This document shows positions 6,358-64,000 of a stretch of 64,000 bases of DNA, piece by piece. The notes under the pieces are model-generated. The model saw only the letters and a program-made list of their open reading frames with translations, did no database searches and had not been told where the DNA came from. Position 1 is the stretch's first letter, and each line of letters opens with the position of its first letter. This DNA comes from Pseudomonadota bacterium (GTDB taxonomy: Bacteria; Pseudomonadota; Alphaproteobacteria; SMXQ01). The translations under genes were made by a program, and so were the position numbers. The stretch covers positions 7,572-71,571 of the forward strand of contig JADFJG010000003.1 in the NCBI GenBank assembly GCA_022566265.1, given 5' to 3'.

Positions 6358-7557
6358 ATGGCCGGATTCCTCACCCTCGATGAGGCCGATGTCGCCGGCA
6401 AGCGCGTGTTGGTGCGCGCCGACCTCAACGTCCCGATGACCGATGGCAAGGTCACGGACAGGACGCGGATCACGCGTCTGGTGCCGACCCTGAGGGAACT
6501 CGCCGCCAAGGGCGCCAGGGTGATCGTCATGTCCCACTTCGGGCGGCCCAAGGGCAAGGCCGATCCGGCGCTCTCCCTTGCCGCCATCGCGCCCGAGTTG
6601 GGCGAGGCATTGGGCCGAAGCGTGGCCTTCGCCGGCGACTGTATCGGCGCCGAGGCCCGGGCGGTGGTGGCCAAGCTAGGCGATGGCGAGTTCGCGCTGC
6701 TCGAGAATCTGCGTTTCCACGCCGGGGAAGAGGCCAACGACGCCGCCTTCGCCGCCGATCTCGCGGCCCTTGGCGAGGTCTACGTCAACGACGCCTTCGC
6801 CGCGGCGCACCGCGCCCACGCCTCGATCGCGGCGATCGCCCGGCTGCTGCCGGCCTTCGCCGGCCGGCTGATGGAGGCCGAACTCGATGCCCTGAACAAG
6901 GTGCTCGGCGCGCCCGAGCGCCCGGTGGCGGCGGTGATCGGCGGCGCCAAGGTGTCGACCAAGCTCGATCTCCTCGGCAATCTCGCCGCCAAGGTGGACA
7001 TGTTGGCGATCGGCGGCGCCATGGCCAACACCTTCCTCTTTGCCGCCGGCGTCGATATCGGCGCCTCGCTATGCGAGCGGGAGATGGCTGAATGTGCGCG
7101 CGCCATCATGGAGGCAGCCAAATCCGGCGGTGCCGAGATCGTTCTGCCCACCGACGCCGTGATCGCCCGCGAGTTCAAGGCCCATGCGCCTAGCCAAACC
7201 GTCGCCATCGACAAGGTGCCGGCGGACGCCATGATCCTCGATATCGGACCGGCGACGACGAAGGATCTGATCCTGAGGCTAGGGCGCTTGCGGACACTGG
7301 TGTGGAACGGCCCGCTTGGCGCCTTCGAGTTGCCGCCGTTCGACGCCGGCACTGTCATGCTCGCCCGGGCCGTCGCCGAGCGCACCCGCGAGGGCACCCT
7401 GTTGAGCGTCGCCGGCGGCGGCGACATCGTCGCCGCGCTGGTCCAGGCCGGCGTCGCCGATGACTTCAGCTATGTCAGCACCGCCGGCGGCGCCTTCCTC
7501 GAATGGCTCGAGGGCAAGGAACTGCCGGGCGTCGTGGCGCTGGAAAAGGCGGGTTAA
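6358..7557 (+). CDS. pgk: Phosphoglycerate kinase
   Basis: 399 aa with the PGK N-terminal motif ([13 protein letters not shown]) and conserved tkt-gap-pgk linkage. Confidence 0.95.
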
Positions 7558-7572
7558 GGGTTTAAGGACTAA

Positions 7573-7816
7573 CCCGGATAATTCATGAAGGGAACGGAAT
7601 TTGCGGCGAGCAATGTTTGTCCAAGGCGGTGCGCGAAGCCGAAAGTCATAGCATAGCTATGGCTTGAGGTTTGGTGCGCCGATTTGAACAAACAGGGCCG
7701 GCGCAAAACCGTTCAGCGGACGAGGGTACAAAACGCCCCTTTTCGAAAAATGAGACAAGTCATTGAAGTAAAACACTTAACACACCCCGAGGGAGCGCCT
7801 TCATGAAATATTCGGG
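7573..7816. mobile_element. MITE-like non-autonomous element, copy 1 (244 bp), with ~19-bp terminal inverted repeats and a 4-bp CTAA target-site duplication
   Basis: Left end CCCGGATAATTCATGAAGG; reverse complement of right end CCCGAATATTTCATGAAGG (17/19 identical). Flanked by CTAA at 7569-7572 and 7817-7820. There is no conserved ORF. A second copy lies at 32339-32583. Confidence 0.65.
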
Positions 7817-9811
7817 CTAAGAGACGACGAGGCTTGCCGGGAAGTGGACCGTCGCCGTGGTGCCCTTGCCCGGCGCGCTGTCGAGCTCCAGGGTGGCGCC
7901 GTGCAATTCCACCAGGGCCATGGTCAGCGGCAGTCCCAGTCCCATACCCTCGTGGTTTCGCGTCTGGCTGCTGGCGACCTGACCGAAGGTCGATACCGCC
8001 TTGGCCATGTCCTCTTGGGCGATGCCGATCCCGGTGTCCGCGACCGCGAGGATCAGCGCCCCGTCCCCGTCTATTCGCGCCGTTATCGTGACTTCGCCGC
8101 CTTCGGGGGTGAACTTGACGGCGTTGGAGATGAGGTTGAGCAGAATCTGCTTGATCTTGGTCTTGTCGGCGCGAAGCGGCGGCAGATAGTCCGCCGTCTT
8201 TACGGTCATCTCGATGCCGCGCTCCAGGGTCTGCTGGGTAAAGAGACGCGCCGCGCCCTCGCACGCCGCCGCCACATCGACCTCTTCCTCGTCCAACTCC
8301 AGCCTGCCGCCCTCGGCCTTCGACACCTCGAGGATGTCGGAGATGATGCCGAGAAGATGCTGGCCGCTGTCGATGATGTCCGCCGCATAGCCGAGGTAGC
8401 GTTCGTTGTTCAACGGGCCGAACACCTGGTTCTTCATCACTTCGGAAAACCCGATGATGGCGTTCAAGGGCGTGCGCAACTCGTGGCTCATATTGGCGAG
8501 GAACTCGCTTTTGGAGCGGCTGGCCTGTTCCGCCAGATCCCGCGCCGCCCTGAGCGCCTCTTCGCGCTCTTTCAACTCCGTGATGTCGCTGACGATGGCG
8601 ACCGTTCCCCCGTCCTGGTTGGCGCGTTCGCTTACCTTGAGCCAGCGCCCGTCCGTGAGATTGAGTTCCAGCGACCCATGCGGGGAACCGTTGGCGTGGT
8701 TCTCGATCCATGCGTCGAGGTTGCCCCGGGTCGCGCCGGTGATCAGTGTCCCGAGAGCGTGGGCGAACTGGATGAAAAGCGTGCCGGGGTCGAGATGGGC
8801 GGATATGTCGGAGAAATAAACCCGCAGTTGGTCGTTGCACAGCACCATTCGATCGTCGCCGCCGAACAGGGCGAAGCCCTCCGAAATGTTGTCGATCGCG
8901 GCGCTCAGGCATTGCTCCGACTTGAGCGCGCGTTCACCGGCCTCGGTCTCGGCGGTGATGTCTTGCGCCGTGCCGCGATATCCCTCGAAGGCCCCGGTAT
9001 CGTCATCGAACACCGGCAAGCCGGAGAGGCGGAACAGCCGTCTCTCGCCCTCGCCGCTGGTGATCTCGAAGGGGAGGTCGCGGAAGGGCGAGCGTGTCGA
9101 TGGACCGGGAAGTTCGCGGGCGTCCTCGCCGTCGGGCTGCTTGAAGGCGCCGAGGTCGAACAGGTTGGTGCCCCAGACGGTGCGCGGATGCAGTCTGAGG
9201 GTCTCGAGGATGCGCGCCGACACGAAGGTCAGATTGAAGCGCGGATCGGTCTCCCAGATCCAATCGGATACCAGCCGCGAGATGTCGTCGAACCGGGCCT
9301 CCGCCGTCTTCGCCCGAAGACGCGCCGCCGTCAGGGCGGTTTCGTTCTGATAGATCCCGCCGACGGCGCTGAGTTCATCGGCTCCGTCGTAAATGGGAAT
9401 GTAGCGCGCGCCGAGGTATCGGGGATGTCCCTGGATCTCGATGGTTTCCTCGCGTTCGATCGGGGTGCCCGAGACCTCGATTTCGCGGATGACGTCCTCG
9501 ATGGGAAAGGCCGGGCTCAGGGCCACGGCGGTGCCGGTCCGGTCGAAGGCGGTGGCTTCGGCGATGCGGCGGTACTGGCGGTTGGCGTAGATGATGTTGC
9601 CGTCAAGATCGGCCAGGAACATCGGCGGGCCGCTGTCGAGCAGCTGCAAGGCCTCGGGCGGATGTCCGGATAGCGGCGCCGGGTGAAGGACATCGCCGTC
9701 ATCTCGCCGGGGCGCTTCGCGGGCATCATCGGCGGCCACGGCGGCGGGTTCACCGTCCAGCAGGACGATCGAATCGGCGGAGGCCCCGGATGACGGTCTA
9801 GTTTTTGTCAT
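7817..9811 (-). CDS. PAS-domain sensor histidine kinase (HisKA + HATPase_c, PleC/DivJ-like H-box)
   Basis: H-box KSEFLANMSHELRTPLNAIIGFSE and N/G1/G2 boxes (LISNAVKFTPEGG, DTGIGI, GLGL) are present. N-terminal PAS-like repeats. No receiver domain. The TAG stop codon lies inside the MITE target-site duplication. Confidence 0.85.
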   Translation of the reverse strand: MTKTRPSSGASADSIVLLDGEPAAVAADDAREAPRRDDGDVLHPAPLSGHPPEALQLLDSGPPMFLADLDGNIIYANRQYRRIAEATAFDRTGTAVALSPAFPIEDVIREIEVSGTPIEREETIEIQGHPRYLGARYIPIYDGADELSAVGGIYQNETALTAARLRAKTAEARFDDISRLVSDWIWETDPRFNLTFVSARILETLRLHPRTVWGTNLFDLGAFKQPDGEDARELPGPSTRSPFRDLPFEITSGEGERRLFRLSGLPVFDDDTGAFEGYRGTAQDITAETEAGERALKSEQCLSAAIDNISEGFALFGGDDRMVLCNDQLRVYFSDISAHLDPGTLFIQFAHALGTLITGATRGNLDAWIENHANGSPHGSLELNLTDGRWLKVSERANQDGGTVAIVSDITELKEREEALRAARDLAEQASRSKSEFLANMSHELRTPLNAIIGFSEVMKNQVFGPLNNERYLGYAADIIDSGQHLLGIISDILEVSKAEGGRLELDEEEVDVAAACEGAARLFTQQTLERGIEMTVKTADYLPPLRADKTKIKQILLNLISNAVKFTPEGGEVTITARIDGDGALILAVADTGIGIAQEDMAKAVSTFGQVASSQTRNHEGMGLGLPLTMALVELHGATLELDSAPGKGTTATVHFPASLVVS

Positions 9812-17541: not shown

Positions 17542-18432
17542 ATGTCATTGAGAATCAGATTGTCCCGGGGCGGCGCCAAGAAGCGCCCGTTCTACCGCAT
17601 CGTTCTGGCGGACTCGCGCTCCCCGCGGGACGGCCGCTTCATCGAGAGACTCGGCACCTTCGACCCGATGGTGGCCAAGGACCACCCCAAGCGCCTGGTG
17701 CTCAAGGAAGAGCGCATCAAGTACTGGCTGTCGCGGGGCGCCAAGCCCAGCGACCGGCTGGCCCGGTTCCTCGGCGCGGCGGAGATCATCCCGATGCCGC
17801 CGATCCCGGACAACCCGATCAAGAGCCGGCCCAAGGCCAAGGCCCAGGAGCGCATGAAGGAGGCGGAAGAGGCGAAGAAGGCGGCGGCGGAGGCGCCGCC
17901 ACCCGAGGAAGCCCCGGCGGAGGAAGCGGCCAAGGAAGAAGCTCCGGCGGAAGAGGCGCCGGCGGAAGAGACCCCGGCCGAGGAAGCGGCCAAGGAAGAC
18001 GCCGCGCCCGAGGAGGCTGCGGCGGCGGAAGAGACCCCGGCCGAGGAAGCGGCCAAGGACGAAGCACCGGCGGAAGAGGCGCCCGCGGAAGCAGCCCCGG
18101 CGGAGGAAGCGGCCAAGGAAGACGCCGCGCCCGAGGAGGCTGCGGCGGCGGAAGAGACCCCGGCCGAGGAAGCCGCCAAGGAAGAGACCCCGGCCGAGGA
18201 AGCCGCCAAGGAAGAGGCCCCGGCCGAGGAAGCCGCCAAGGAAGAGGCCCCGGCCGAGGAAGCGGTGAAGGAAGAGGCCGCGCCCGAGGAAACGGCCGCC
18301 GGAGAAGCCCCGGCCGAGGAAGCGGTGAAGGAAGAAGCCGCGCCCGAGGAAACGGCGGCCGAGGAGAAGGCGCCGGACAAGAAGAAACCCGCCGCCAAGG
18401 AAGCGGCCGAGGGCGAGGAGAAGGAGACTTAG
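17542..18432 (+). CDS. rpsP: 30S ribosomal protein S16 with ~215-aa acidic repetitive C-terminal extension
   Basis: The N-terminal 80 aa ([42 protein letters not shown]) is canonical S16. It is followed by tandem [10 protein letters not shown]-type repeats. Confidence 0.85.
17880..18400 (+). repeat. In-frame tandem repeat array (33-bp / 11-aa unit, imperfect, more than 10 copies) inside rpsP
   Basis: Repeated GAAGAGGCCCCGGCCGAGGAAGCCGCCAAGGAA-like units encode (E)[10 protein letters not shown]. Larger ~120-bp duplications are nested in the array. Confidence 0.85.
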
Positions 18433-26436: not shown

Positions 26437-27669
26437 ATGCTCCGGTTTCTCGCCGTTTTCCTGTTGGCCTTCGGTTTCGCCGGCCAGGCGTTGGCGGACG
26501 CGGAAAGGGACTACAAGAGGGGGTTTGAGGCCGCCGGACGGGGCGACTTCCAAAGGGCCATCGCCTTTTATACCGCCGCCATTCGCCAAAGCCCGAACTT
26601 CGCCGCCGCTTATTACGCCCGCGGCCACGCCCAAAGCCAGCTCGGCGATCATTACCAGGCGCTGCAGAACTACCTGAAGACGATCGCGCTCAAGCCCGAC
26701 GCCGCCAACGCTTATTATGCCCGTGGCAACGCCTACGGCTATATGGGCGACGACAAAAGGGCGATCTCGGATTATTCGCGGACGATCGTGCTCAAGCCCG
26801 AATATGCCGCCGCCTATTACGCGCGGGGCAACGCCTTCGGCCGCATCGGCGAGCACGGTCGCGCGGTGGCGGATTTCTCCAAGGTCCTTCAGCTCGGTTG
26901 GGGCATGGCGGCCGCCTATTGGGCCCGCGGCGATGCCTTCAGCCGGCTTGGCAAGCACCAGCAGGCGATCGAGGATTACGGCAAGACGATTGGGCTCGAT
27001 CCCACCTTTTCCGCCGCTTATTTCGACCGTGGCAACGCCTATGGCCGGTCGGGTGAACTCGCGCGGGCGATAGAGGACTACACCCGGATCATCCATCTCA
27101 AGCCCGACCATTACGGCGCCTACTTCGCGCGGGGCAACACCTTCAGGGTCCAGGGCGCTTATGACGCCGCCCTCAATGACATGAACGCCGCGATCCGCCT
27201 CAGGCCGAATCACTTTCAGGCCTACATGGCCCGTGGTTACGTCTTTTCCCTCAAGAAACTCTACGACCGGGCGATCAGGGACTATTCCCAGTCCATCCGC
27301 CTCAACCCCGATCACTTCACGATCTACATCAACCGTGGCGTCGCCTACCGCGCCTCCAAGAACTTGAACTTTGCCCTCAAGGATTTCCGGACGGCGTTGA
27401 GTCTCAAACCCGAGCACCCCGGCGCCCATTACAATTTGGCGCTGACCTATCTCGATATGCGCCGGTTCGGCAGCGCCATCGAGGCGTTCAACCGGGCCAT
27501 TCAGTTGCAGCCGAAACCCTTGTGGTTCCACTATTACCGCCGTGGTCTCGCCTATGAAGCGCAAAAAGACCACGCCCAAGCGGCGGAAGACTTCAAGAAA
27601 GCCTATGGGCTGGAACCCACCCGCCCCGAACTTCAGGCCAAGATGAAAGCGCTGGCGCCGGCGCCGTGA
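26437..27669 (+). CDS. Secreted tetratricopeptide-repeat protein (more than 10 TPR units)
   Basis: A signal peptide MLRFLAVFLLAFGFAGQALA is followed by many 34-aa AYYARGNAY-type TPR repeats. Confidence 0.8.
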   Translation: MLRFLAVFLLAFGFAGQALADAERDYKRGFEAAGRGDFQRAIAFYTAAIRQSPNFAAAYYARGHAQSQLGDHYQALQNYLKTIALKPDAANAYYARGNAYGYMGDDKRAISDYSRTIVLKPEYAAAYYARGNAFGRIGEHGRAVADFSKVLQLGWGMAAAYWARGDAFSRLGKHQQAIEDYGKTIGLDPTFSAAYFDRGNAYGRSGELARAIEDYTRIIHLKPDHYGAYFARGNTFRVQGAYDAALNDMNAAIRLRPNHFQAYMARGYVFSLKKLYDRAIRDYSQSIRLNPDHFTIYINRGVAYRASKNLNFALKDFRTALSLKPEHPGAHYNLALTYLDMRRFGSAIEAFNRAIQLQPKPLWFHYYRRGLAYEAQKDHAQAAEDFKKAYGLEPTRPELQAKMKALAPAP

Positions 27670-31284: not shown

Positions 31285-31392
31285 AAGCTCGCGGTGTCGG
31301 CGGAGTGAAAACAATTCCAGTGGTGGCGCCATCTGGCTATGATCGCCATGGATTTGGAGGGTGCCCGGGAAATGCCGGACGACGGGAGGCCC

Positions 31393-32217
31393 ATGAAGAT
31401 CAGCAGGCTTTGCGGCGCGCTCGGCGCCGAGGTGCGGGGCGTGGACCTGGCCCGCCTGGACGAGGCGGCGAGCGCGGCCATTCGCGACGCCTTCCATGAG
31501 CACCTGGTCCTGGTGTTCCCGGATCAGGACCTCGCCGCCGGCGCCCAGGTGGCATTCACCGAGCTGTTCGGCGCCGTCGAGCCCCACCCGCTGCGCACGC
31601 GCCGGACCGTCGACGGCTTCCCGGCGGTGCTGATCATCGAGAACCGCAAGGGCCGGCCCGGCGCGCGCAACGACTACTGGCATTCGGACATCTCCCACGC
31701 CGAACGGCCGCCGGCGGTGACGGTGCTGCACGCGATCAAGGTGACCGAGGGGCGCGGCGACACCATGTTCTGCAACATGTACCGCGCTTACGATGCGCTT
31801 TCGGAGGACCAGCGCGAGGCCTTGCGGGGCCGGCGCGCGCTGCACAGCGGCATGGCCACCTACACGCGCAGCCTGGAGCATAACGACGCCCGCGCCATCG
31901 ACCGCGCCGAAGTGAAGCCGCCGCGCGCCCACCCGGTGGTGTGCACCCATCCGGTGACTCATCGCCCGATGCTGTTCGTCAACCCGCACTTCACCACCCG
32001 TATGGAAGACATGACGGAGGACGAGAGCCGTCCCCTGCTGGACAGCCTGTACGCCGCCGCCACCCGGCCCGAGAACGTCTACCGGCACCGCTGGCGGGTC
32101 GGCGACGTGGTGATGTGGGACAACCGGTGCGCCATGCACTACGCGGTCATGGACTACACCGAGGACATGGCGCGCCAACTGCACCGGACGACCGCCGCCG
32201 GCGCCGCGCCGCGCTGA
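31393..32217 (+). CDS. TauD/TfdA-family Fe(II)/2-oxoglutarate-dependent dioxygenase
   Basis: HSDISHAERPP (HxD iron ligands) and the C-terminal motif MWDNRCAMH. GGGAGG SD 4 nt upstream of the ATG at 31393. Confidence 0.85.
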   Translation: MKISRLCGALGAEVRGVDLARLDEAASAAIRDAFHEHLVLVFPDQDLAAGAQVAFTELFGAVEPHPLRTRRTVDGFPAVLIIENRKGRPGARNDYWHSDISHAERPPAVTVLHAIKVTEGRGDTMFCNMYRAYDALSEDQREALRGRRALHSGMATYTRSLEHNDARAIDRAEVKPPRAHPVVCTHPVTHRPMLFVNPHFTTRMEDMTEDESRPLLDSLYAAATRPENVYRHRWRVGDVVMWDNRCAMHYAVMDYTEDMARQLHRTTAAGAAPR

Positions 32218-32338
32218 GCGCCGTGGCCAGTCCCCGTCGCTCGGCCGATACGGACTGGTCATCCAAGCCTCCCGATCGTTGGAAAGCTTGAATCACATCC
32301 GGACTCAAACGATTCCATCCGGCCGGATCGTGCCCTAA

Positions 32339-32583
32339 CCCGAATATTTTATGAAGGCGCTCCCTCAGAGCGTGTTAAGTGTTTTACTTCAAGGGTTTGG
32401 TTCGTTTGTCGAAAAGGGGCGTTTTGTACCCTCGTCCGCTGAACGGTTTTGCGCCGGCCCTGTTTGTCCAAATCGGCGCACCAAACCTCAAGCCATAGCG
32501 ATGCTATGACTTTCGGCTTCGCACACCGCCTTGGACCAACATTGCTCGCCGCAAATTCCGTTCCCTTCATGAAATACCCGGGC
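32339..32583. mobile_element. MITE-like element, copy 2 (245 bp, about 92% identical to copy 1, inverted orientation), with CTAA target-site duplication
   Basis: Left end CCCGAATATTTTATGAAGG; reverse complement of right end CCCGGGTATTTCATGAAGG. Flanked by CTAA at 32335-32338 and 32584-32587. It lies between the TauD-like gene and sdhC. Confidence 0.65.
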
Positions 32584-32857
32584 TAACCCCCCGCCGACAC
32601 CGTCCGGGCAAGGTTCCCTATTCGGCCGGATTTGCCCGCCGGACCGGGCGCCACTGGCCGGCGATATCCGCCTCGGGCGGCGGGCGGGCCGTCGCCGGGG
32701 GATCGGGCGCTGGGCGCGGTGGAGGTCGGTTTCCCCGAAGTTGACACTGAGTGGCCAGGAGTCTAAACCGGGTGCGCGGCGTCCAACATCGAGCGGCGCC
32801 GCATTCCGTCCGAGATCGTTTCTCACGGCTTCGCTGATCGCTCTCAGGGCTTCGCAA

Positions 32858-33256
32858 ATGCCAAAGGGTAAACGTCCGCTGTCGCCTCATCTGCAGGTCT
32901 ACCGGCCGCAGTTGACCTCCACCTTGTCGATATTTCACCGCATTACCGGAGTGGCGCTGTTCGCCGGCATGGCGCTGCTGGTCACCTGGCTGCTGGCCGC
33001 CGGGGCCGGGCCGGGCCCCTTCGCGGTGGCCCAGGGATTGCTGGGGTCGTGGTTTGGCATGGTGGTGCTTCTCGGGTTTTCCTTCGCGCTGTTCTTTCAC
33101 CTGTGCAATGGCGTCCGCCATCTCGTCTGGGACGCCGGCTGGGGCTTCGAGTTGCCCCAGGTCTATGCTTCGGGTTGGGCGGTCGTCGTGGTGTCGGTGC
33201 TGTTGACCGGAGCGGCCTGGGCGTACGGCCTGACCATGATGGGCGGCGGATCATGA
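32858..33256 (+). CDS. sdhC: Succinate dehydrogenase cytochrome b556 subunit
   Basis: [26 protein letters not shown] is the canonical SdhC N-terminus. 3 TM helices. Confidence 0.85.
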
Positions 33257-38934: not shown

Positions 38935-40374
38935 ATGATCCGCTCGGTCATACTTGCCCTGGTGCTTGCGTTCGGCTTGGCGGCGCCGGTCCGGGCCGGC
39001 GTCGAAACCGGACTGGCGGCGTACGAGATGGGCGATTATGCCACCGCCATCTCGGAACTGCGCTCGCCGGCGAAACGGGGCGACGGCAGGGCCCAGTACC
39101 AACTCGGCCTGATCTACGCCAAGGGCCAGGGCGTCGATAAGGACAGACTGACGGCGCTCATGTGGTTCACCTGCTCGGCCGCGCAAGAGACCGGCGCGAT
39201 GAGCCGGGAGGCCGCCAAATGGCGTGATCGGATCGCCTCGGGACTGGGCGCGGGCGCCGTTTCCAACGTCCAAAAACTGGCACAGTGGTGCCCGGCCAAG
39301 GTCGGCCCGCGGCCCCGGAAATCCTATCAGGGCGCGAAACTGCCCCGCCGGGTGTCCTGGATCGGCCGTCTGTTCTTCGCGCCGGGCGATTCGATCGTCT
39401 TGGGGATGGTTGTGCTGGCGGACGCCTTTCGCATGCCCACTCTGAGAAAATTCGCCACTCATTTCGTCGTTTATTTCGGCGATCTGTTCCTCGGCGTCGT
39501 TTCGGCCTTAATGTGGCTGCTGTTCGCGGGAACCATATTCCTCCTCAACAAGGTCCGCGTCTCGCTGGACGTTTCACGAAAGAAGAGAGAGGAAGAAACC
39601 CAGCAAGTGGCTCTCGAGCAGCAAATTCTTGCCAATCGCGCGAAGTCGGAATTCCTCGCCAATATGAGCCATGAGCTGAGGACGCCACTGAACGCCATCA
39701 TCGGCTTTTCCGAGATGCTGAAGCAGGAGTTCTTCGGCGACCTCAATGAAAAGCAGGCCGAATATGTCAGGGACATCAACATGTCCGGTTCTCACCTGCT
39801 GAACATCATCAACGACATCCTCGACATTTCGAAGATCGAGGCCGGCAACATGGAGCTCAACGATGAAGAGGTCGACTTGGAAGAGATGATCGACGGCTGC
39901 ATCTCTCTGGTAAAGCACCGCGCCGATACCGGGCAGGTCACCCTCGTCACCGACTTCCGGTCATCCATGAAGGTCATTCGCGTCGATGCGCAGAAACTCA
40001 AGCAGATCATGCTCAACCTGCTCTCGAACGCGGTCAAATTCACCCCCGAGGAGGGGACGATCGAAGTCGGAGTCGACGTCGACAAGGAAGGGGCCTTCGT
40101 GCTGAGCGTGACCGACACCGGCGTCGGCATGTCGCCCGAACAGATACCGGAGGCGATGCGGCCTTTCGGGCAGGTGGACAACGCCATCAGCCGGGAATCC
40201 GAAGGCACCGGTCTCGGTCTGCCATTGACCAAGTCCCTGGTCGAAGCCCACGGCGGCACCCTCGAGGTTGAAAGCAACCTTGGGGTCGGCACCACGATTA
40301 CCCTTCGCTTCCCGCCGGAACGGACGGTCGATTACCTGCCGATCTACGACGATCAACTGGTCGTCGCGCAGTAA
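38935..40374 (+). CDS. Sensor histidine kinase with periplasmic Sel1/TPR-like domain (PleC/DivJ-like H-box)
   Basis: Signal/TM region, Sel1 repeat (AQYQLGLIYAKGQGVDKD), a second TM block, H-box KSEFLANMSHELRTPLNAIIGFSE, then HATPase_c (LLSNAVKFTPEEG, DTGVGM, GTGLGL). The ORF-track start at 38725 is over-extended. Confidence 0.8.
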   Translation: MIRSVILALVLAFGLAAPVRAGVETGLAAYEMGDYATAISELRSPAKRGDGRAQYQLGLIYAKGQGVDKDRLTALMWFTCSAAQETGAMSREAAKWRDRIASGLGAGAVSNVQKLAQWCPAKVGPRPRKSYQGAKLPRRVSWIGRLFFAPGDSIVLGMVVLADAFRMPTLRKFATHFVVYFGDLFLGVVSALMWLLFAGTIFLLNKVRVSLDVSRKKREEETQQVALEQQILANRAKSEFLANMSHELRTPLNAIIGFSEMLKQEFFGDLNEKQAEYVRDINMSGSHLLNIINDILDISKIEAGNMELNDEEVDLEEMIDGCISLVKHRADTGQVTLVTDFRSSMKVIRVDAQKLKQIMLNLLSNAVKFTPEEGTIEVGVDVDKEGAFVLSVTDTGVGMSPEQIPEAMRPFGQVDNAISRESEGTGLGLPLTKSLVEAHGGTLEVESNLGVGTTITLRFPPERTVDYLPIYDDQLVVAQ

Positions 40375-62565: not shown

Positions 62566-64000
62566 TCAGTCGGGCTGTTTGTTGGCGAGGGCGGAGACCG
62601 GGACCAGGATCAAGCCCTTTTTCTCGAATTGCCGGAGCCACCGCCCGACCCGCTCGAAGGTGACGGGATAGGTGGTGCCGACGCCAAGGGCATGGCCGCT
62701 CGTCCGGGCGATGCGCTCGAGCTCGGCGAGCCTTTGGTCGATGGCCTCCCGCGATGCCCTGACGTCGATGAAACGGTTGTTGATCGCCCTCGCCAGGCCG
62801 ATCCTGGTCGCCATCCGGGCGGCGACGCTACGCAGCGAAGCACCCGAATCGACGAACATCAGGCCGCGTCTCTTCAACTCCGCGAGGATCGGATCGAGAT
62901 GGCGGCCCGAGGTCGTGAACCGTGAGCCCATGTCGTTGATGACACCGACATATCCGGAAGACCGGCTCAACACCCAACGCAGGCGCTTGAGATTCTCCGC
63001 CGCCGCCAGAGAGGTCAGGAGCGTATGGGGACCGGGGTCGTCGGCGGGAAAATTGTCCGGTTCCATCGGCAGGGTCAACAGCACCTCGTGGCCCGCCGCC
63101 CGGGCCAGGGGAATCCACCGGTCGAGCGTCTTGGCGTAGGGCGCGAAGGCCAGGGTCACGGCGCCGGGAAGACGCTGGATGGCGGCCTGGGTCGAAGCCT
63201 CCGAAAGCCCGAGTCCGACGATCACCAGGGCAATGCGCGGCCGTCTGTCCCTGTCATCGAAGCGGCGCGCATAGACCAGCCACGGCTTGCGCCCGTCGTC
63301 GCCGATAACGGGCAGCAGTCCTAGCCCGCTTTTCTCGGTAAGGCCGGGATCCGGCGCCGGTGAGAGCGCCGAACGCCTGGTGATGATGTTGCTCAGCGCC
63401 TTCGGCGCTCCGGGCACGGGCGAGGGCGCCTTGGGAGCAACGGCGGAGGGGCGGAGCCGGACGACCGTTTTACCGGCGGCCGTTTCACCGGCGGCGGTTT
63501 TCTCCTGGGTGGCCTTGGACGTTTCCTTTTTGGCCGGCTTGGGCGTCACCGCCGGCTCGGGCGCCACCGGCGGCTCGGGTGTCGCCGTCTCGATCTCGGC
63601 TTTCACCGGGGCCTTGGCGGCGGGCTTGGTTTTTGCGGGGACCTTGGCTTTGGCCTTGGCTTTCGCCTTTGGCTCGGGTGCGGCCGGCTTCGGGGGCGTC
63701 TTCGCCTTAGCCGGCGGCTCGGGCGTCGCCGTCTTGGCCTCGGCCTTCACCGGGGCCTTGGCGGCGGGCTTGGTTTTTGCGGGGACCTTGGCTTTGGCCT
63801 TGGCTTTCGCCTTCGGCTCGGGTGCGGCCGGCTTCGGGGGCGTCTTCGCCTTAGCCGGCGGCTCGGGCGTCACCGTCTCGACCTCGGCCTTCACCGGGGC
63901 CTTGGCTTTCTCAGGGGGCGTGGCCTTGGCGGGCGGCGTCTTGGCTTTCTCGGCGGTCCTGGTCTTCGGTTCCGGGGCGGGCGGCGGTTTCTTGGCGGCG
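62566..64000 (-). CDS. Divergent polysaccharide deacetylase (YibQ-like) family protein with Ala/Lys/Pro-rich repetitive N-terminal region; the 5' end probably runs off the window
   Basis: The C-terminal domain resembles DUF610/divergent polysaccharide deacetylases. The N-terminal region has tandem AKTPPKPAAPEPKAKAKAKAKVPAKTKPAAKAPVKAE repeats. The reading frame stays open to the window edge. Confidence 0.65.
   Translation of the reverse strand, partial: AAKKPPPAPEPKTRTAEKAKTPPAKATPPEKAKAPVKAEVETVTPEPPAKAKTPPKPAAPEPKAKAKAKAKVPAKTKPAAKAPVKAEAKTATPEPPAKAKTPPKPAAPEPKAKAKAKAKVPAKTKPAAKAPVKAEIETATPEPPVAPEPAVTPKPAKKETSKATQEKTAAGETAAGKTVVRLRPSAVAPKAPSPVPGAPKALSNIITRRSALSPAPDPGLTEKSGLGLLPVIGDDGRKPWLVYARRFDDRDRRPRIALVIVGLGLSEASTQAAIQRLPGAVTLAFAPYAKTLDRWIPLARAAGHEVLLTLPMEPDNFPADDPGPHTLLTSLAAAENLKRLRWVLSRSSGYVGVINDMGSRFTTSGRHLDPILAELKRRGLMFVDSGASLRSVAARMATRIGLARAINNRFIDVRASREAIDQRLAELERIARTSGHALGVGTTYPVTFERVGRWLRQFEKKGLILVPVSALANKQPD
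63595..63900 (-). repeat. About 130-bp in-frame tandem duplication (2+ copies) within the deacetylase-family gene
   Basis: Two nearly identical blocks are visible: GGCTTTGGCCTTGGCTTTCGCCTT...GGCGGCGGGCTTGGTTTTTGCGGGGACCTTGGC. Confidence 0.8.

Follow-up and report, generated by a model that had tools for sequence, protein, structure and literature searches.

The intergenic interval between a phosphoglycerate kinase gene and a convergent sensor histidine kinase gene in an alphaproteobacterial contig contains a 244-bp non-coding sequence with repeated ends, which raises the question of whether it is a mobile element or a fixed RNA gene, to which transposon family it belongs, and what its long hairpin does. 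The window, that is, the whole stretch of 64,000 nucleotides that was analyzed, contains this element (copy A) and one further copy (copy B). The relevant features are as follows.

6358..7557, plus strand: pgk, phosphoglycerate kinase (ORF list; PF00162 on the identical gene in the metagenome assemblies L002 and L206)
7569..7572, no strand: left target-site duplication CTAA (a single CTAA in the empty site)
7573..7591, plus strand: left terminal inverted repeat CCCGGATAATTCATGAAGG (matches the ends of the full-length elements L013, L097, and L120)
7592..7714, plus strand: long imperfect hairpin of ~123 nt, apex at 7647-7661 (CATAGC-ATA-GCTATG) (folding, covariation, and a covariance-model match of 99.8 bits)
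7715..7797, plus strand: variable A-rich segment, 48% GC vs 65% GC in the window (columns 152-200 of alignment A2)
7798..7816, minus strand: right terminal inverted repeat, reverse complement CCCGAATATTTCATGAAGG (inverted-repeat comparison)
7817..7820, no strand: right target-site duplication CTAA (7817-7819 is the kinase TAG stop, minus strand)
7817..9811, minus strand: PAS/HisKA/HATPase_c sensor histidine kinase, 664 aa (ORF list; Pfam families on the identical gene)
32339..32582 (32335..32586 with CTAA flanks), minus strand (inverted): element copy B (CTAA at 32335-32338 and 32583-32586)

Copy A, 244 bp long and non-coding, occupies positions 7573-7816. Re-reading of the window sequence bore out the coordinates and repeat sequences given for it in the preliminary description, and the CTAA reported there on both sides (7569-7572 and 7817-7820) was seen in the sequence. 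The terminal inverted repeats are 19 bp long and complementary at 17 of 19 positions, with two mismatches, and no match of this kind arose in 100 shuffles. The pgk gene lies upstream and is co-oriented with the element, its TAA stop (7555-7557) falling 15 nt before it. The kinase gene is convergent with pgk, with copy A between the two; as the kinase ORF (7817-9811) is on the minus strand, positions 7817-7819, read in reverse complement, are its TAG stop. The ORFs of copy A measure only 24-73 aa; as previously described, none is common to both copies in the window, and they also differ between clades. The variation among alignment columns tracks base pairing, not codons.

The hairpin of copy A adjoins the left repeat without a spacer, and covariation indicates that it is conserved throughout the family. 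In the variable segment, we found a conserved motif, GTACAAAAC, at 7726-7734 and a putative IHF-like core, GACAAGTCATTGA, at 7754-7766, for which the family consensus is yAA-N4-TTGA. This half of the element may thus contain an IHF-type bend site, as judged by its likeness to the consensus WATCAANNNNTTR. The preliminary description had suggested that the element could serve as a terminator-like or antisense spacer. Scans of the locus and of 33 related elements for intrinsic-terminator and sigma-70 promoter patterns yielded none that was consistent, and a blastn comparison of copy A with plasmids gave no match.

Empty sites were sought by exact-protein look-up, with the kinase leading to three metagenome contigs and Pgk to a fourth assembly, L206. 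The site is empty in the metagenome assemblies L001, L002, and L206, where the sequence reads GGGTTTTA-CTAA-GAGACG with a single CTAA and no element. Over 5-13 kb, these assemblies share 99.5-99.8% identity with the window, and the filled and empty alleles encode identical kinase and Pgk proteins. In L001 and L002, the stop codons of pgk and the kinase are just 8 nt apart (...TAAGGGTTTTACTAAGAGACG..., with one CTAA). The empty site in three near-identical assemblies identifies copy A as a recent, polymorphic insertion; the element is mobile, and it inserted recently enough for polymorphism in a natural population. The repeats, the paired CTAA, and the empty sites together agree with the original description of a MITE-like non-autonomous transposon with a 4-bp YTAR duplication. 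A further contig, L003, stops exactly at CTAA, which we infer to be the expected behavior of an assembly graph in which both alleles, filled and empty, are present. The 590-bp indel that seemed to separate L001 from the window proved to be a scaffold gap of Ns.

The before-and-after pair is not perfectly clean, since the alleles differ to the left of the duplication (window 7558-7572): the filled allele reads GGGTTTAAGGA, whereas all three empty alleles read GGGTTTTA, a difference of 5 nt vs 2 nt. The difference may have been left by repair after insertion or excision, or the preceding GTTAAGG may have been copied locally in near-tandem.

The preliminary description had named, as the finding that would speak against a mobile repeat, a conserved intergenic RNA gene present at orthologous positions only. 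A fixed feature of the pgk/kinase locus, either an RNA gene or a regulatory site, would suit the strong structure (z -11) and its covariation described below. However, the same site is empty in the three strains that are 99.5-99.8% identical, elements of this kind, flanked by target duplications, are scattered over unrelated positions in many taxa, and there is no Rfam match. These results favor mobility and make a fixed, non-mobile gene exceedingly improbable.

Copy B is 91% identical to copy A over 258 nt and has CTAA on both sides on the plus strand. Its neighbors are a TauD-like gene (31339-32217, plus strand) and sdhC (32858-33256, plus strand), and it is antisense to both. The nhmmer profile and the covariance model detected only these two copies in the 64-kb window. 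Exact-protein look-ups with a spurious 457-aa ORF, sdhA, and alternative tauD start choices found no empty site for copy B; the site was occupied in every contig reaching that far, including L200, which was retrieved through sdhC. A contig from another metagenome sample (L201:168-1451) carries a gene for an IS4-family transposase (NF033591, E 1e-62) that stops 4 nt short of the hairpin half of copy B, on the upstream side of sdhC. With a transposase gene leading into the hairpin end, this contig resembled a possible parent element; we rejected it, since the IS4-family transposase is unrelated and simply abuts the MITE. Either the MITE has received a nested insertion, or the assembly is chimeric here.

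Other repeats were observed in the window. Positions 17851-18411 are filled with dense periodic repeats of 15/30 nt (GAGGAAGC/GCCCGAGGA-rich, in 22 overlapping copies), which probably encode a low-complexity repeat rich in Glu/Ala/Pro. A 102-nt unit occurs five times in tandem at 26602-27147 (60-71% identity), and near the window end a 144-nt unit occurs three times, at 63567-63966 (90-96% identity); both units are likely to be repeated protein domains. In addition, 108 nt inside the kinase gene (8417-8524) are 78% complementary to 39631-39738, 31 kb away, which probably represents a paralogous kinase domain on the other strand.

To which family does the element belong? A scan for the degenerate repeat CCCGRRTAWTTYATGAAGGS, with each species represented by a single genome, gave at least 116 loci, so that the copy numbers and host range given here are lower bounds. 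In nearly all of the at least 116 loci listed, the repeat is bordered on its outer side by CTAG, CTAA, TTAG, or TTAA. One locus, in an Opitutales MAG (L013:220-1786), is a 1567-bp element bounded by the repeat that encodes a 436-aa protein, matching PF13701 at 2e-165 and the NCBIfam model NF033539, "IS1380 family transposase", at 1e-124. L097 (~1617 bp, CTAA/CTAA flanks) is likewise a full-length element and encodes a transposase that is 58% identical. A scan of metagenomes with an alignment of these transposases yielded 80 more IS1380 loci and, where the ends could be found, these were CCCGGATATTTCAT... with YTAR flanks, in dozens of cases. The terminal repeat CCCGGATATTTCATGAAGG of copy A is the end of IS1380-family insertion sequences, with a match of 14-20 nt, and its left repeat resembles the IS1380 end that is located downstream of the transposase gene. 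Thus, the autonomous insertion sequence with matching terminal repeats, a search for which had been proposed earlier, was found in L013, L097, L120, and dozens of metagenomic IS1380 copies. The candidate L032 was rejected as a 1.57-kb element, as it is a truncated MITE beside a cation-efflux gene.

Since tblastn detected no IS1380 transposase in the 64-kb window, copy A is non-autonomous, and since its repeats are the ends of NF033539-encoding elements, it is an IS1380-family rather than an IS5-family MITE. The preliminary description had assigned it to IS5, and that assignment was not upheld: elements with the same ends encode IS1380 transposases (NF033539, E 1e-124; PF13701). IS5-group transposases also make 4-bp duplications at YTAR, and the duplication at CTAA would fit movement by such an enzyme. 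However, this kind of duplication is not exclusive to IS5, because the IS1380 clade described here does likewise. Over 14-20 nt, the repeats match the ends of elements that encode IS1380 transposases and show the same YTAR flanks. Moreover, to our knowledge, ends starting with CCC...GGG are not those of IS5-group elements. An IS5-family origin is therefore very improbable, and copy A is, with high probability, a non-autonomous IS1380-family MITE belonging to a widespread family of ~240-bp hairpin-bearing elements. The gene-less element would be moved in trans by an IS1380-family DDE transposase recognizing the ends CCCGGATATTTCATGAAGG, and such an enzyme would cut YTAR with a 4-bp stagger, so that the target, here CTAA, is duplicated.

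Several observations concern the autonomous copies themselves. The Opitutales MAG CBDDEL01 (L013, L014, L017, L045, L059, L074, and L114) harbors dozens of near-identical IS1380 copies, several of which are arranged head-to-tail with a single shared 4-bp YTAR (...TATCCGGG-CTAA-CCCGGATA...), and short elements of ~173 bp occur in tandem in L045 and L114 of the same MAG. These tandem arrangements are consistent with the re-use of a regenerated target.

The choice of target explains the position at the stop codon. Among 41 short elements, YTAR constitutes 87% of the 82 flanking 4-mers, and the 4-mers on the two sides are identical in 21 elements, compared with 9.0 expected by permutation (p<5e-5). 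About half of these 41 members have non-identical flanking 4-mers, which may reflect decay or recombination. A model with a 2-bp (TA) duplication was rejected, as the outer positions vary among the near-identical Opitutales copies and match on both sides of both window copies. In the 64-kb window, YTAR occurs 104 times vs 485 times expected from base composition, a 4.7-fold depletion at 65% GC, and every YTAR includes TAA or TAG. Because YTAR is rare in this GC-rich genome and contains a stop triplet, the usable targets are enriched at gene ends and stop codons, which explains why copy A landed on one. As the target is duplicated on insertion, the gene keeps its stop; copy A landed on the kinase stop without altering either flanking protein. 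The preliminary description had stated that the right CTAA supplies the kinase stop codon. It does contain the TAG, but the stop is not newly supplied, since the CTAA of the empty site already provides it. Insertion exactly at the stop codon is the expected outcome and not a special adaptation.

Pairing of the ends revealed short elements of mostly 238-246 bp across very different hosts: Arenicellales, Methylococcaceae, Motiliproteus, Neptuniibacter, Amphritea, Cocleimonas, Sedimenticolaceae, the Olavius Gamma 3 symbiont, a Rhodospirillaceae MAG, and unclassified Gamma- and "Proteobacteria" MAGs, with a divergent form in Thermodesulfobacteriota-type MAGs. One Methylococcaceae MAG has at least 12 copies and one Arenicellales MAG at least 16. 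An alignment of 33 short elements (A2) showed a common architecture consisting of the left repeat, a hairpin of ~125 nt, CAG, an ACAAAC motif, a variable A-rich stretch, and the right repeat. The hairpin apex is kept in A2 as CATAGC-N3-4-GCTATG, or as CCTTGG...CCAAGG in Motiliproteus, and the purine-rich internal loops are conserved. The core yAA-N4-TTGA lies in the variable stretch, halfway from the base of the hairpin to the right repeat, in five of six clades. The divergent members L113 and L089 have the same layout with an unrelated hairpin sequence. In five elements of 178-204 bp (L012, L029, L038, L106, and L088), the apex is lost and the base is kept, the deletions being approximately symmetric about the hairpin center. 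The searched papers contained neither the repeat string nor an IS1380-derived MITE, and this hairpin-bearing group with IS1380 ends, widespread in Gamma- and Alphaproteobacteria and beyond, is apparently undescribed.

Individual insertions were seen in varied settings. In a Sedimenticolaceae MAG (L061:1360-2132), a MITE (1703-1940) lies inside a tRNA gene cluster, co-oriented with it and 11 nt upstream of one tRNA, so that its hairpin-first strand should be in the tRNA precursor. An Amphritea MAG (L110:4974-6085) contains two MITE copies within 1.1 kb, one of which is interrupted by an insertion of ~40 bp.

The fold of copy A reaches -116.3 kcal/mol, with z -11 on the plus strand and z -6 on the minus strand; the long hairpin for which folding had been suggested as a check is thus present. 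In a single strand, the element folds into a stem of paired ends (19-21 bp), the conserved ~125-nt hairpin, and a variable loop. The RNAalifold consensus of A2 contains 53 pairs, 32 of them with compensatory changes. In this consensus, 93.0% of the cells are paired vs 35-50% when the partners are slid by 1-3 columns, and doubly changed cells number 258 vs 23-72 after sliding. Covariation scored 0.442 vs 0.05-0.11 in controls, a value reached by none of 500 shuffles. Just inside the right repeat, columns 149-150 pair with 229-230 and extend the end-to-end stem, with G-C in 20 sequences and C-G in 12; these changes follow clade boundaries and hence represent few independent events. A covariance model restricted to the hairpin (R1; 141 positions, 34 pairs) recovered an Amphritea copy left out of model building, at 122 bits. 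Rfam searches of the window and eight loci of other taxa gave no match at the gathering score, and only noise at E up to 10.

The structure is confined to the short elements. R1 found no match in 82 full-length IS1380 elements at E up to 1, and an nhmmer search with the family profile against 80 metagenomic insertion sequences detected the terminal repeat only, with no interior match. The end-proximal non-coding regions of full-length IS1380 elements show ordinary folding z-scores (-4 to +2), and no full-length element sharing the MITE interior was found. By these sequence comparisons, the sampled parent insertion sequences are not the source of the MITE interior. The sole interior link is between GTACAAAACGCCCCTTTT in the MITE and GCGCAAAAnACCCCCTTTCCCC / GCGCAAAAnACCCCCTTT in IS1380, located ~95 nt from the same end. 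Within the full-length elements, the motif GCGCAAAAnACCCCCTT(T/A)CCCC is common to many IS1380 copies of this clade (L120-L199 and L013), where it lies ~95-110 nt inside the end that follows the transposase gene. On the hairpin-first strand, the end-proximal regions of these copies are rich in G/T, that is, C/A-rich in the sense of the transposase mRNA.

What does the hairpin do? It might act in RNA, act in DNA, or have no function. The single most likely reading, which we hold tentatively, is a role at the RNA level, in which read-through transcripts would self-fold and stabilize or define 3' ends. The paired ends in such transcripts could be an RNase substrate, and defined or protected 3' ends would make insertions in 3' UTRs tolerable, much as for Correia and ERIC elements. 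The strand asymmetry points in this direction: the consensus energy is -47.5 kcal/mol on the hairpin-first strand vs -16.1 on the opposite strand, the covariance-model score is 99.8 bits vs 35.7 bits, and a strand-neutral alignment of arm vs arm contains 171 G.T and 60 A.C oppositions, in the same direction in every clade. The differences between the right and left repeats are precisely those transitions that create G.U pairs on the hairpin-first strand (columns 14-237 and 15-236). In addition, only ~74% of the hairpin arms is Watson-Crick paired, with conserved internal loops and bulges, and such imperfect arms suit RNA and poorly suit cruciform extrusion. Against an RNA role, no conserved sigma-70-like promoter was found on either strand of the 33 elements, no terminator pattern was seen, and the divergent member L113 is without strand asymmetry. 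Read-through would give the weaker-folding strand in 30 of 41 elements and the hairpin-first strand in 19 of 41, a weak, non-decisive bias based on crude ORF-based gene calls. The orientation is mixed in the window as well, with copy A running along pgk and copy B antisense to tauD and sdhC. Part of the asymmetry could also be compositional, since the end regions of full-length IS1380 elements are G/T-rich on the same strand. Possibly, though this is doubtful, the hairpin is a mobile RNA module, selected on one strand, that uses the IS1380 ends as a vehicle and constitutes a new class of ncRNA.

At the DNA level, the hairpin and an IHF-type bend might together bring the ends of a very short element close to each other for the transposase, a need that a 1.6-kb insertion sequence would not have. 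The occurrence of the hairpin only in short elements, with none in the 82 full-length IS1380 copies, fits this idea, as do its direct contact with the left repeat, the IHF-consensus-like yAA-N4-TTGA core between the hairpin base and the right repeat in five of six clades, the persistence of copies with symmetric apex deletions (L012, L029, L038, L106, and L088), and the lack of a promoter or of an orientation preference ensuring transcription. Nevertheless, we consider it unlikely, because arms with ~74% Watson-Crick pairing and loops are a poor cruciform substrate and typical of RNA, and neither the G.T:A.C ratio of 171:60 nor the energy gap between the strands is expected if both strands must fold. 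Long palindromes are substrates for intrastrand templated mutation, and a quasi-palindrome without any function might be kept by arm-to-arm template switching in replication, which would mimic compensatory change. The symmetric apex deletions in the family, the susceptibility of long palindromes to templated mutation, and the failure to find a promoter, a terminator, or an orientation bias are all compatible with such an origin. Correction of this kind should, however, erase the imperfections, and the same purine internal loops and G.U pairs are kept across clades with almost fully diverged stems. The architecture also recurs with unrelated hairpin sequences in L113 and L089, and the length is held at 238-246 bp across classes. 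A structure maintained by self-correction alone is accordingly quite improbable, and the RNA-level role remains our preferred, if tentative, reading.

Comparison with known systems places the family in context. The signature of piggyBac, a 4-bp TTAA duplication with CCC...GGG termini, is strikingly like the arrangement YTAR-CCCGG...CCGGG-YTAR of the present elements. IS1380 transposases have been used as the outgroup of piggyBac (PMC10813416). Within the IS1380 family, IS1247 makes 5-bp duplications (PMC3281130, Table 2), so that a strict 4-bp YTAR is a property of the present clade. With the IS1380 family (IS1380, IS1247, ISEcp1), our elements share the ends CCCGGATATTTCAT..., the CC start, the 4-bp duplication, and the YTAR flanks; they differ in that IS1380 elements are ~1.6 kb long and carry a transposase gene, whereas the MITE is 244 bp long, has no gene, and has an interior non-homologous to those sampled.

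The ERIC/IRU, Correia (NEMIS), RUP, and BOX elements are likewise short, multi-copy, and intergenic, with end repeats that pair once transcribed by read-through. An IHF site and cleavage by RNase III are features of Correia elements, and ERIC has a conserved secondary structure. These elements have a TA duplication or none and form a hairpin of the whole element, whereas the present family has 4-bp YTAR duplications and IS1380 parentage. Unlike ERIC and Correia, the MITE described here folds asymmetrically, into a stem of paired ends and a separate ~125-nt hairpin with internal loops. Moreover, MITEs of the ERIC/Correia type are each confined to one genus or family, whereas this family spans several bacterial classes. 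A covarying structure near one element end is also found in RNA-OUT of IS10, the 5' stem-loop of IS200, the omega RNAs of IS200/IS605, and the bridge RNA of IS110. Those RNAs, however, sit in autonomous elements and act with or on their own protein, whereas the present hairpin is absent from autonomous elements, and no promoter was found for it. We know of no use of RNA by DDE transposases of the IS1380 kind.

At the level of the locus, the result is modest: copy A widens the convergent gap between pgk and the kinase gene from 8 nt to ~260 nt and leaves both proteins untouched, and the filled and empty strains form a natural pair for studying effects on convergent transcription. The locus also shows why such elements gather at stop codons in GC-rich genomes. 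The broader result is a MITE family tied to IS1380, the bacterial relatives of piggyBac, with a strict 4-bp YTAR documented for the whole clade. What is new here is a widespread, length-conserved family with IS1380-type ends and a covarying hairpin that its parents lack, a structure found only in the short elements, across several bacterial classes. A conserved structure in a parasitic non-coding element needs explaining, whether by an RNA function, an aid to transposition, or self-correction of a palindrome. If the hairpin is indeed a mobile RNA module, it would not be a transposon leftover but a widespread ncRNA, present in Alpha- and Gammaproteobacteria and further groups, that has its own function in the cell or for the element.
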